Part shown: piece after piece, positions 37,050-40,815 of the stretch
Layout of the letters: each line of letters starts with the position of its first letter
How positions within the stretch are numbered: position 1 is the first letter of the stretch
DNA from: Bispira polyomma
Lineage: Eukaryota
Assembly: GCA_965649765.1 (NCBI GenBank)
Contig: OZ287749.1
Location: 95,542,001-95,606,000, forward strand
Length of the DNA: 64,000 nucleotides
Direction of reading: 5' to 3'
Translations under genes and position numbers: made by a program
The notes under the pieces: generated by a model
Told to the model about the DNA's origin: nothing
What the model saw: the letters and a program-made list of their open reading frames with translations, nothing else
Database searches by the model: none

Positions 37050-40000
37050 TTAACCAAGGCAACCACATACGCGCTTTGTCCATATACTTCTGCACCAACA
37101 TCTCAAACCTGAAACTAAGCAGACAGTTTTAGTGTTACTTTAATATTGCTTTTAACACATCTTGTGTCATATCTCGACTGGTAATTCACAAGCTCCTCCA
37201 AAAACATTACCAGTGCTAATATTCAAATCCATGACTGCTAAGTTGTAAGATGAGTATACAAACTTGTATTTCCAGAATCAATATAATGTTTATCAAAATT
37301 AAGTTTTTACAATTACATTTTTTCATACTGGTTTCATCTCAAACATTTCTTCCAATTTGTGAACCTGCATTTATCCGAACAAAACATTGTTCTCTCTCTA
37401 TGCATATGCATTATTAAGGCATATTACCTCTCTATAGTGAACCTGACTTTCTGTTTGGATATATGTTAAACCTTGCATATTTTTTTTGAGGTTTGTGTTG
37501 CATGCTAACCAATACTCTAACTTGTCTTTCATGCCTTTACAGGGTATAAAATTATATATGTGATGGTTACATAGAAATAAAAAGAATACCAGTTTCTATT
37601 AAATATACAGAGACCTTTAATACTAAATCCAATAAATCTGAGTAAATCTAATCAGGCATATTCTGACACTTAATCTTGGCACTGGCCGGTTCTTAGCTGC
37701 AACACTATAAGTATATTAAATAAAAGTATTATTTGCAGACAGAAAGACGCCATAGCCACGTAGATGCCAGCATAAGCATTTCACAAGATATTTTTAAACT
37801 ATTGTAATGGTATGAGTACATTGTATAAATTATGCAGCTCGAGGATTGTGTATGATAGAAAATCAATAATACTGATCTAACATCTAACAGGTCATGTTGA
37901 AACGCCTTTAGTAATGTGGGTAACGTGTCTGCCTCTGTATGAACAAACCAGCTAAAATATCCAGACCATAACAGCATGCATCTGATGAATATGTGGTAAA
38001 TCATTCCATGGTACTAAAAACTCTTATTTAAATGTACTTGCTAATTGAATGTACAAAACTACTAGGATACTGCTAGCATTCATATTAGTATTACTGTTGT
38101 AAGTATTTTAGAAATATGGACAAATAAACCATCTGAACATGTATAGCCAGTTAAACATTAACATTCTATACATAAACCACAAAGACAACAAACACATTGA
38201 TAACTTTCAAGGTTTTACATAATTTTAATTACTCTGGGTGGAACTAGCTATGAATACCAGTCATTGATAAATCTGATAGCTTTAACAAACCTATTATATA
38301 GACCTCTATTTAGCAGGATACCTAGGTGAAAGATTGATCAATATAGGATTGTGACAAACCTCTCTTCTGCCTGCCCTTGCCCTTCTTCTTGCCTTCTAAT
38401 TCTTGGACCAAATTCTTTCCAGCGGTTGGACATTCTTCACCATCAATTAGAGTTTGAGTCAACAAATCTAAATAGCACAATATGTGTGTTATATTCATTT
38501 TATATATTTTTGAGGCTGACACCAAACTATACTAAGGTGTGTTTAAATAAGAAGTAATACACAGATCTTCATATTTTATATTAACATAGATATATGTACA
38601 GCCAAGTTCTTGCAGCGTGATTCCACAAAACAAGCATTTGGTAAAAAAGATAAATATATAAAAAAATTCAGACTCAGTGTAAATATATATTATTTTTAGT
38701 GATCATAGGACTTACCAAATTGCTCAGCTGTAAATTCTTTCTCCATTCCTTTCAATATCTGTAAAATCCAGTAATTAATTAGAAGGAATATCAATTACAC
38801 TTGACGACAAAATATTTGTCATTAAATTGATAGATCACTATACAACAAACAACTTTGTATCCATAGGATATCCCACCATTCAGAATATTCTGACGTTTCA
38901 TAAGTTTGTTAGCTACATACACTGCCACCATATGAATATCTATATATGTATCATGCTGTTTGACAAAATCGAGAACTGAAGTGATTTACAAATCTGCGTG
39001 ATATGACACATTTTGGTACGTATTAACAGTTACTCAACACAAAACAGTTTGTCAATTGGTAACAAGACAGACATATCAATCAATATACCTTTTCTATCTT
39101 TCGAAGCAATGCATCCCCTGCAAGAATAAATATTTAAGAAAGTTAGTTTATTACTTAGTGCAAAGACACATGGCATGCAAAATATGATTTTGTTATTAGT
39201 CATATAAAAATCCTGTGGTCATGCAAAACATGATTTTGTTATTTGTCAAATGTAAAGCCAGCGGTCATAACTATATAATTTATTGTGTTTTGATTTGATC
39301 TTTGCTGTTTTGTTTTTTTTGCGAAAAGAGCAACATACAGTTGTTTTTGTGAGCTTGTATCCCTTGGAATACTTGCCATAACGGTTAAGTCATCTATTGA
39401 ATAAGAGTTATGGTAATTTCAAAAATAGTACACCAGCAAATAACAATGGACTAGCATTTCAATCTTGCTAATTTATGTCATTTACGTGCCTTTTAAAGTA
39501 AAACTTATTCATAAAAATCATAATCCAAAAAAATATTTGTTTTACTTAATTGTAAATGTTCTTACTTGAATCTGGTGAATCTGTTGCTGTCGCCCGTTTA
39601 ACCTTCTCAACCTTTTAAGAAATCAACGATATTTCTATTTATTTCGCATAATGAAACCTATTGATACATATTTCTACAGGGTAAATACTCCATTTATTAC
39701 ATAATTATGTGACATGCTGAGAAGTAGCCAATAACAATCTTTTAAACAACATACTTTGTGTTAAACAACATACTTTGTGTTAAATTGTCAAACTCCCACC
39801 CATTTTTAGGGTCACCAGAAGGGTTGGAAGGTTTTTGACGAACACGTTTGAAACCTATAAGCCTGCACAATGTATTCCTAATCCCCTCTGTAGACACAAT
39901 TAGATTGAGACCTTGGGTAACTGAATACGATTACTTAGGACATTCATATGTACAAACTATAACGGTCACTTTTAGAAAATCCCCTTCTTTTCAAAATTAG

Positions 40001-40815
40001 TATTGTGTCCCCGAATGCTGAGAGGTGGAAGTGAACTCGATTTTTAAACACACGTTTAATATTATATCCATTGAGTGTTTAGACTGTTTGATTCAGTTAA
40101 ATCAAAAGACATTTTGCAGTATTTTTACTGTTATGTTATTAAGTCTTAATAATGTTGAAATACTTATATGCTTGTTTACAAATAATTATGTCACTCTCTA
40201 TCTCTGTATACACACAGATAAACACAGAAAATATGTTGACTGTTTCTGACAATTTTTACCATCCCAAAGTATTTGACGGTTTAAACCTAGTGTCATGTCA
40301 AAAACAGGTTTTGGACATCAAAAACCCAACCCTTGTAACCAGTAAAGATCAATCAATATTCCTCAAAATCAAAACAATAGCAATAAAAGATTAACAGACA
40401 AGCCATTTTACTGAATATCTAAAACTACTAAGTAAAGTTTATGTAAATTGTAACATCTAATATAGTAAAGTTTAGTTTCGGTGTAACGCAACTTTTAACA
40501 TGTCATGTGTCATATCTCAATTGGCAGTTCATTAGTGAGAATATCAGAGCAGGGTAGTTGGTCTAGGTTTTCTGTTGTGCAAACTACTGGTGGTGCCCAG
40601 CAAATTTACATCCAACTTAACAACATGAATACCAGGGCCAAGATACGAACCCACAACCGCAGAAGTAGGAGGTGCATGTGTTACCACTACACCACCCATG
40701 ACTCTAAATTATAGATGTTTACATTTACCTCAGAGAGGTCATCAACAGCGTCAGGTTCACAGGTTACAGCAATCAAGAACGTCACCAGACACAGGAGTTT
40801 GAAGATCACTACCAT
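37050..40815 (-). CDS. Six-exon gene for a 123-aa secreted prepropeptide releasing a cationic 4-Cys peptide (candidate beta-hairpin antimicrobial peptide or toxin)
   Basis: Coding exons (minus): 40815-40729, 39611-39566, 39117-39089, 38758-38716, 38467-38360, 37108-37050. All five introns are GT..AG with compatible phases (0,1,0,1,1), and the total is 372 nt. Protein: MVVIFKLLCLVTFLIAVTC-EPDAVDDLSEVEKVKRATATDSPDSRDALLRKIEKILKGMEKEFTAEQFDLLTQTLIDGEECPTAGKNLVQELEGKKKGKGRQKR-GLRCWCRSIWTKRVCGCLG*. TATA box upstream, AATAAA downstream. Confidence 0.88.
40520..40700 (-). mobile_element. tRNA-derived SINE remnant in intron 1 of the peptide gene
   Basis: GGGTGGTGTAGTGGTAACAC..GGGTTCGTATC A/B boxes. 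Confidence 0.5.

Follow-up and report, generated by a model that had tools for sequence, protein, structure and literature searches.

A gene of six small exons, encoding the precursor of a short cysteine-rich peptide, lies on the minus strand of a 64,000-nucleotide stretch of the Bispira polyomma genome (contig OZ287749.1, positions 95,542,001 to 95,606,000), hereafter the window, and is described here together with a family of paralogous genes in the same genome. The six exons, pointed out by a first-pass annotation made from the letters of the window, were found at the positions claimed, and joining them by coordinates rebuilt the frame of 123 amino acids (aa): the coding exons add up to 372 nucleotides (nt) and end in a single stop codon. 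The five introns, 1117, 448, 330, 248 and 1251 nt long, all have GT..AG borders. In order of transcription, the features of the gene are:

40903..40909, minus strand: TATA box (TATAAAA), recognized by sequence, 94 nt before the ATG.
40729..40815, minus strand: exon 1, 87 nt, hydrophobic signal peptide of about 19 aa (predicted cleavage site) and start of an acidic spacer.
39566..39611, minus strand: exon 2, 46 nt, holding the first basic site, KVKR (KIKR in paralogues A to E, see below).
39089..39117, minus strand: exon 3, 29 nt, propeptide.
38716..38758, minus strand: exon 4, 43 nt, propeptide.
38360..38467, minus strand: exon 5, 108 nt, invariant cysteine C81 and a basic run ending in RQKR, a predicted convertase site (REKR in the paralogues).
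37050..37108, minus strand: coding part of exon 6, 59 nt, 19-aa product with the pattern C-x-C-x8-C-x-C, terminal Gly and stop.
36989..36994, minus strand: AATAAA polyadenylation signal, 56 nt after the stop.

The bracketing of the frame by TATAAAA and AATAAA and the anatomy of the precursor, with a leader, a propeptide ending in RQKR and a 19-aa C-terminal product, agree with the earlier description. The genome gives the last 19 residues without any joining of exons, as the last G of the splice acceptor yields the same Gly codon. An additional basic site, KVKR, occupies precursor residues 32-35, and C81, the sole cysteine of the propeptide, is invariant in all eight aligned exon-5 sequences: judging from the sequence, these two features would be compatible with a second product or with a pro-form linked by a disulfide. 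Cleavage at KVKR/KIKR would free a middle peptide, some 60 aa in length (39605-38361, minus strand), with a helix-like periodicity and one invariant cysteine (DGEECP). High-copy repeat pieces, apparently of the same family, lie within intron 1 (about 40540-40700) and intron 5 (about 37140-37300).

The short last exon was recovered as one contig, with zero differences, in all three DNA runs, which come from one study and are possibly the source of the assembly; being unchanged in three runs out of three, even if these may be the assembly's own reads, it does not appear to be an assembly slip. An in-frame upstream acceptor, able to provide a longer last exon, was also sought: the single open one lies 6 nt upstream and adds two residues and no cysteine. 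The runs behave as DNA and contain no splice joints, which says nothing for or against expression. Within 36700-41200 a second allele was not seen in them, and the depth was close to half that of one exon-5 contig: the window locus may be hemizygous, contig depth being no copy number.

The genome, 1.035 Gb in 75 contigs, contains ten paralogous loci, nine of which, A to I, are clustered on the same strand of contig C2, while the tenth, K, is found on contig C11:

C2:88,351,900-88,561,400, one strand: cluster A to I of eight-cysteine cationic peptide loci (region mapped: C2:88,328,500-88,584,999, minus 700 bases).
C11:34,240,000-34,243,300: locus K, dispersed paralogue.

Genome searches led to eight further loci with exon 5, to ten with a paralogue last exon and to eight with exon 1; the short last exon of the window gene matched itself only. 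The window gene is solitary, 7 Mb from the cluster and amid transposon remnants, and no further copy was found within 50 kb either side of the window. Five paralogues (A, C, D, E and F) are intact and have the exon layout of the window gene (87, 31-52, 29, 43, 108 and 110-116 nt). Each of the nine last exons tabulated encodes a cationic peptide, 36-38 aa long, whose eight cysteines follow the spacing 3,4,6/7,1,1,6/7,1; a terminal Gly is present in five of these peptides. The mature peptide is identical in A, D and E and near-identical across A, C, D and E; those of F and I are more basic (12 Lys/Arg). Since homologous exons and splice sites are found in eight paralogues, and the TATA box is placed alike in F, H (-93) and I (-98), within a well-aligned promoter, the gene structure is beyond chance. 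The first-pass annotation overlooked that the window peptide did not arise independently: it is a truncated member of an eight-cysteine family of the same genome. The family extends to at least one other assembly, because an open frame in ENA, the only hit of an exon-5 profile among 2183 candidates, contains an exon 5 that differs from all those of the Bispira polyomma genome.

In the last exon of the window gene the paralogue acceptor is kept, 48-54 nt are then missing in frame, and similarity resumes at the CWC core. Three cysteines are lost with the deletion; family Cys6, TGT in the paralogues, is AGT (Ser) in the window gene. The C-x-C-x8-C-x-C product corresponds to the C-terminal half of the peptide encoded by the 110-116-nt exon of the paralogues. 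Introns and promoter of the window gene align to those of F, H, I and K, not to those of A to E, with intron distances to F/H/I of 0.149-0.165, as against 0.203-0.219 between K and F/H/I, and a tree of exons 1 to 5, which included all ten rows having these exons (G has none), parts the F/H/I/K-side group from A-E at 100/100 (midpoint root). Because the window gene groups with F/H/I/K by introns, promoter and tree, and all nine paralogue last exons hold eight cysteines, the short form is the derived one: on this sequence evidence, the window peptide almost certainly arose by deletion within the eight-cysteine family, although exon distances are nearly star-like, which speaks against this placement. 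The 3' untranslated region (UTR) of the window gene (37049-36450, minus strand) aligns to none of those of the paralogues, which align mutually, and was probably swapped when the copy moved.

A solitary copy, amid transposon remnants and with a 3' UTR of its own, might be a decaying duplicate, in which the deletion killed the function and the frame has stayed open by luck. Half of the ten paralogues are indeed broken. In B the beginning of exon 5 is gone; of G there remains a last exon interrupted by a stop; an A-run in exon 3 of H is one base too long, which may be an assembly error; the exon-2 donor is absent from I; and in K part of exon 1 has been lost with a shift of the frame. Substitutions, too, lean in this direction. 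Compared with F, the propeptide has a rate of non-synonymous change (dN) of 0.27 and a rate of synonymous change (dS) of 0.28, a ratio near 1, so that no purifying selection is seen by substitutions outside the signal; window-specific codons include 16 non-synonymous and 4 synonymous changes; and exons have diverged as much as introns or slightly more (p 0.02-0.06 against F, H and I, 0.77 against K). All these points weigh against a maintained gene. However, over a divergence of 15-22% the frame, ten splice sites, the ATG, the TATA box, RQKR, an even number of cysteines and the terminal Gly have all been retained. Exon indels with respect to F are all in frame, whereas of the 22 indels counted in introns 3 and 4, 19 are not multiples of 3. 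In a crude neutral simulation, based on assumed rates, frame and splice sites remained intact with a probability of 0.0006-0.03, and the four cysteines of the ladder described below were kept, with Cys6 lost, with a probability of 0.02-0.05. Moreover, in signal exon 1 dN against F is well under dS (0.11 and 0.41, over 19 codons). Decay is thus improbable in our judgment: the pattern is more like that of an effector in rapid evolution than that of a dead copy, and the locus very probably holds a real, maintained gene.

No named homologue of the precursor or of its paralogues came out of the searches made, in which exons were used singly and short profiles are weak; the first-pass view that the gene belongs to no known family stands in this respect. 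Pfam gave no match for exons 1, 5 and 6 of the window gene or for the parent peptide. At E 0.001, a profile of the mature peptide matched none of 1.84 billion representatives, a number at which a 36-position profile is weak, and a further homologue search returned none out of 565 candidates. PDB searched by sequence gave two chance-level rows in one search and none in another; among Atlas language-model neighbours, best scores were 0.84 and 0.79. Family motifs looked for in published papers gave two matches, both unrelated to judge by title and abstract, and topical literature searches no description of the family; the accessible parts of PMC10608444, PMC4999892 and PMC13388995, like those of all papers cited below, being the portion considered, no matching family appears in them. 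We conclude that the genome holds a peptide family hitherto undescribed, one member of which has been naturally truncated to the size of a hairpin.

The 18-residue peptide left by amidation at the terminal Gly would have a charge of +5, with three Arg, one Lys and neither Asp nor Glu; it contains Trp, its grand average of hydropathy (GRAVY) is 0.27, and the monoisotopic mass computed for the amidated two-disulfide form is 2134.03 Da. Protegrin precursors carry a cathelin domain. As the first-pass annotation had it, the window precursor has neither this domain nor the BRICHOS domain of the annelid hairpin peptides: exons 1, 5 and 6 were scanned without a Pfam match (exons 2-4 being too short alone), the 85-aa proregion contains one cysteine, and the precursor is 123 aa long instead of about 200.

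Size, charge and the excess of Arg over Lys place the window peptide within the ranges given for beta-hairpin antimicrobial peptides (AMPs), i.e. 11-25 residues and +1 to +8; the class is further defined by a single antiparallel hairpin with disulfides at least 3 residues apart, and by evidence of structure and of antimicrobial activity (PMC13001179). That survey, of 2026, comprises 25 natural families, its molluscan entries being laboratory fragments, and the spacing C-x-C-x8-C-x-C is in none of the sequences tabled in it. Protegrins resemble the window peptide in length (16-18 aa), amidation, cationic character (+5 to +7, against +5) and paired CxC motifs, and differ in having four residues, rather than eight, between the inner cysteines (PMC13001179). 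Arenicin-3, abarenicin, alvinellacin, capitellacin and HfBRI-25 are likewise invertebrate two-disulfide hairpins, from annelids; the first two share the eight residues between inner cysteines, but arenicin-3 has C-x3-C where the window peptide has C-x-C, and the precursors of the group, of about 200 aa, contain BRICHOS (PMC13001179). Z-d14CFR, poNvBH and theta-defensins are CxC-ladder hairpins cut from a larger defensin, as the window peptide would be from its own parent. The former two, however, are laboratory fragments, as opposed to a natural in-frame deletion beside intact parents, and theta-defensins, which are truncated alpha-defensins (PMC4410394), result from a premature stop and the ligation of two nonapeptides.

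We modelled by AlphaFold2 a parent of the A/D/E type, on an eight-row alignment. The model features strands at 8-16, 19-24 and 28-34 and no helix; the window peptide matches its last two strands. The mean predicted local distance difference test (pLDDT) is 66 and the predicted template modelling (pTM) score 0.34: the model has low confidence, concerns a parent and comes without a disulfide list, which limits what it can say for a hairpin. A Trp at the turn would also set the window peptide apart, the loops of known beta-hairpin AMPs being without Trp (in the accessible text of PMC13001179).

Structural comparison of the parent model brought in pacifastins, which account for 5 of the 34 listed Foldseek rows, including ranks 1, 2, 6 and 7. 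Pacifastin-like domains (PF05375) share with the parent a length of about 35 aa, three strands and a similar central Cys-Gly spacing: the core C-x-C-x2-3-G-x3-6-C-T (PMC2689174) fits seven of the nine paralogues (A-F and I, not H and K), and the pacifastin pairing C1-4/C2-6/C3-5 (PMC2689174) maps onto the connectivity we propose for the parent, giving C8-C24, C20-C34 and C22-C32, and leaves one more pair, C4-C13. Molluscs have many pacifastins (PMC13388995). The parent might then derive from a protease-binding domain of pacifastin type that was remodelled, or be a signalling peptide, the short form keeping a binding role other than antimicrobial; the middle peptide, which runs from residue 36 to about residue 95 and has its one invariant cysteine, may in that case also be a product. 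We give this little credit: the best E-value is 2.7, with a template modelling score of 0.42, and is not significant; neither PF05375 nor any other Pfam family matches; pacifastins have six cysteines instead of eight, and in all nine paralogues the reactive-site loop is missing, C-T-x3-C being replaced by C-x-C and C-N-x-C by C-W-C. Were the connectivity nonetheless of the pacifastin type, as this non-significant match suggests, the deletion would orphan only the cysteine that became Ser, leaving a C4-C17/C6-C15 ladder.

The following sequence of events is accordingly proposed for the window gene as a hairpin precursor. A duplicate of an eight-cysteine precursor, from a family of roughly eleven loci, was dispersed; its first three mature cysteines were deleted in frame and a fourth, family Cys6, was lost by a point change to Ser. 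The precursor would be secreted and cut by a convertase after RQKR, the terminal Gly donating the amide of an 18-residue peptide. In the parent, the N-terminal cysteines may be tied to Cys6, and the last two strands may be bridged by a ladder, Cys4-Cys8/Cys5-Cys7, which would outlive the deletion as C4-C17 and C6-C15 of the short peptide. The coincidence between the cysteine orphaned by the deletion and the one turned into Ser lends indirect support to this pairing, already put forward in the first-pass annotation, and a ladder hairpin seems to us rather likely. Carrying +5 charges and Trp, the hairpin could bind and disrupt anionic microbial membranes in host defence; a direct antimicrobial role is, in our estimate, an evenly balanced matter.

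The closest precedent accounts for this caution. DvirARP of Drosophila virilis has a 19-aa signal, an acidic propeptide ending in RQKR and a basic 18-mer with four cysteines, and arose from a defensin by N-terminal deletion after duplication (PMC11116330). It resembles the window peptide in size, origin by deletion, two CxC motifs and the RQKR end of the propeptide, and is non-homologous to it, its parent being a six-cysteine defensin of the cysteine-stabilized (CS) alpha-beta type and not an eight-cysteine peptide predicted as all-beta. The disulfides of DvirARP, however, link C1-C2/C3-C4; the peptide does not form a hairpin and shows almost no bacterial killing (PMC11116330); because this precedent is neither a hairpin nor a real killer, we hold the antimicrobial hairpin at about even odds. 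Similarly, the MgCRP-I peptides of Mytilus, made as cationic pre-pro-peptides by a multigene family restricted to one lineage and having six invariant cysteines, arranged as C-C-CC-C-C, resemble defence peptides, yet showed neither antimicrobial nor toxic activity (PMC4558851). The window gene may hence encode a genuine secreted defence peptide which is not a killing hairpin, its disulfides having rearranged or its role having moved to toxin neutralization, lipopolysaccharide (LPS)- or lectin-like binding or immune modulation. DvirARP, a weak killer yet protective in knockouts (PMC11116330), offers a parallel, and many window-specific amino-acid changes, together with the differing 3' UTR, suit a new role. 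Against this, the retained part already forms two antiparallel strands in the predicted parent, an engineered defensin deletion gave a beta-sheet with nested disulfides (PMC11116330), and engineered defensin-fragment hairpins of such kind are antibacterial (PMC13001179). We regard this outcome as unlikely, though less so than decay or a pacifastin-like role.

Two further identities were considered. The layout of signal, propeptide, dibasic site and cysteine-rich peptide, with tandem duplication, is common to venom peptides, and the best language-model neighbours of paralogue K are scorpion short toxins (score 0.84): the peptides might be toxins, or act against prey or predators on animal ion channels or membranes, the short form being a minimal variant. 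That score counts as a lead, shuffled proteins reaching 0.8 one time in three; Pfam and PDB show no match, the parent model is without helix, and the four near-identical mature peptides of A, C, D and E suggest dosage, not diversification. A toxin has, in our opinion, a slim chance. The parent peptide fits the CS-alpha-beta defensins only in part: their motifs CxxxC and CxC are present in all nine paralogues, but CxxxC is here formed by the first two cysteines, the upstream cysteine (C2 of the reference array) is absent, and the model, of low confidence, is all-beta. In defensins of this type CxxxC is borne on an alpha-helix and a further cysteine lies upstream (PMC5116183).

Taken as a whole, an intact truncated family copy yielding an amidated, two-disulfide beta-hairpin which disrupts microbial membranes has, we think, as many chances of being right as of being wrong. 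The wider proposal is more tentative, and we would put it somewhat below that: an undescribed eight-cysteine, three-stranded defence family, possibly pacifastin-like minus the inhibitory loop, would have begotten a beta-hairpin antibiotic via one deletion and a Cys-to-Ser change. Defence peptides commonly form clustered birth-and-death families, with a conserved signal and a variable cationic C-terminus, which speaks for a defence role of the present family. MgCRP-I has been cited for the same pattern (PMC4558851).

Some observations concern the surroundings of the gene and the rest of the genome. Retroelement remnants, with frames resembling reverse transcriptase and tyrosine recombinase, lie at 21900-26900, 28800-33700 and 61800-62700 and flanks, and are candidates for the DIRS type, judging from their open frames. 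The frames 45887-46711 (minus strand) and 44020-44340 (plus strand) presumably correspond to a MADF/Myb-like protein and a transposase tail, respectively, suggesting a PIF/Harbinger remnant. At 19754-20131, seven near-perfect 54-nt units are open in one minus frame. The mitochondrial genome (C75, 15,503 nt) carries cox1, cox2, cox3 and nad3 on one strand, and nad1, nad2, cob, nad6, atp6, nad5 and nad4 on the other, along with two tRNA-Met(CAT) calls; its COX1 is at most 80% identical to anything scored, and its code reads ATA as Met, AAA as Lys and AGA as Ser. An ordered Hox cluster is found at C13:17.0-17.9 Mb, where Post2, Lox2, Lox4 and Lox5 are presumably represented, to go by their sequence signatures; no Antp-like or Post1-like gene was among the matches read, the best 150 of 483 candidates having been scored. 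These Hox genes point to a lophotrochozoan, and Lox2, along with mitochondrial genes on both strands, led us to discard a brachiopod.

The origin of beta-hairpin peptides has so far been argued mainly from engineered defensin fragments and from two natural cases, theta-defensins and DvirARP. Here parent and truncated child are found in one genome and both can be synthesized, which makes the effect of trimming to two strands on fold and killing directly testable. The parent family, without a named relative, is a source of new peptide scaffolds. If the reading of the window peptide as a hairpin antibiotic is true, a hairpin AMP family would have been caught at its origin, parent and child still side by side in one genome.

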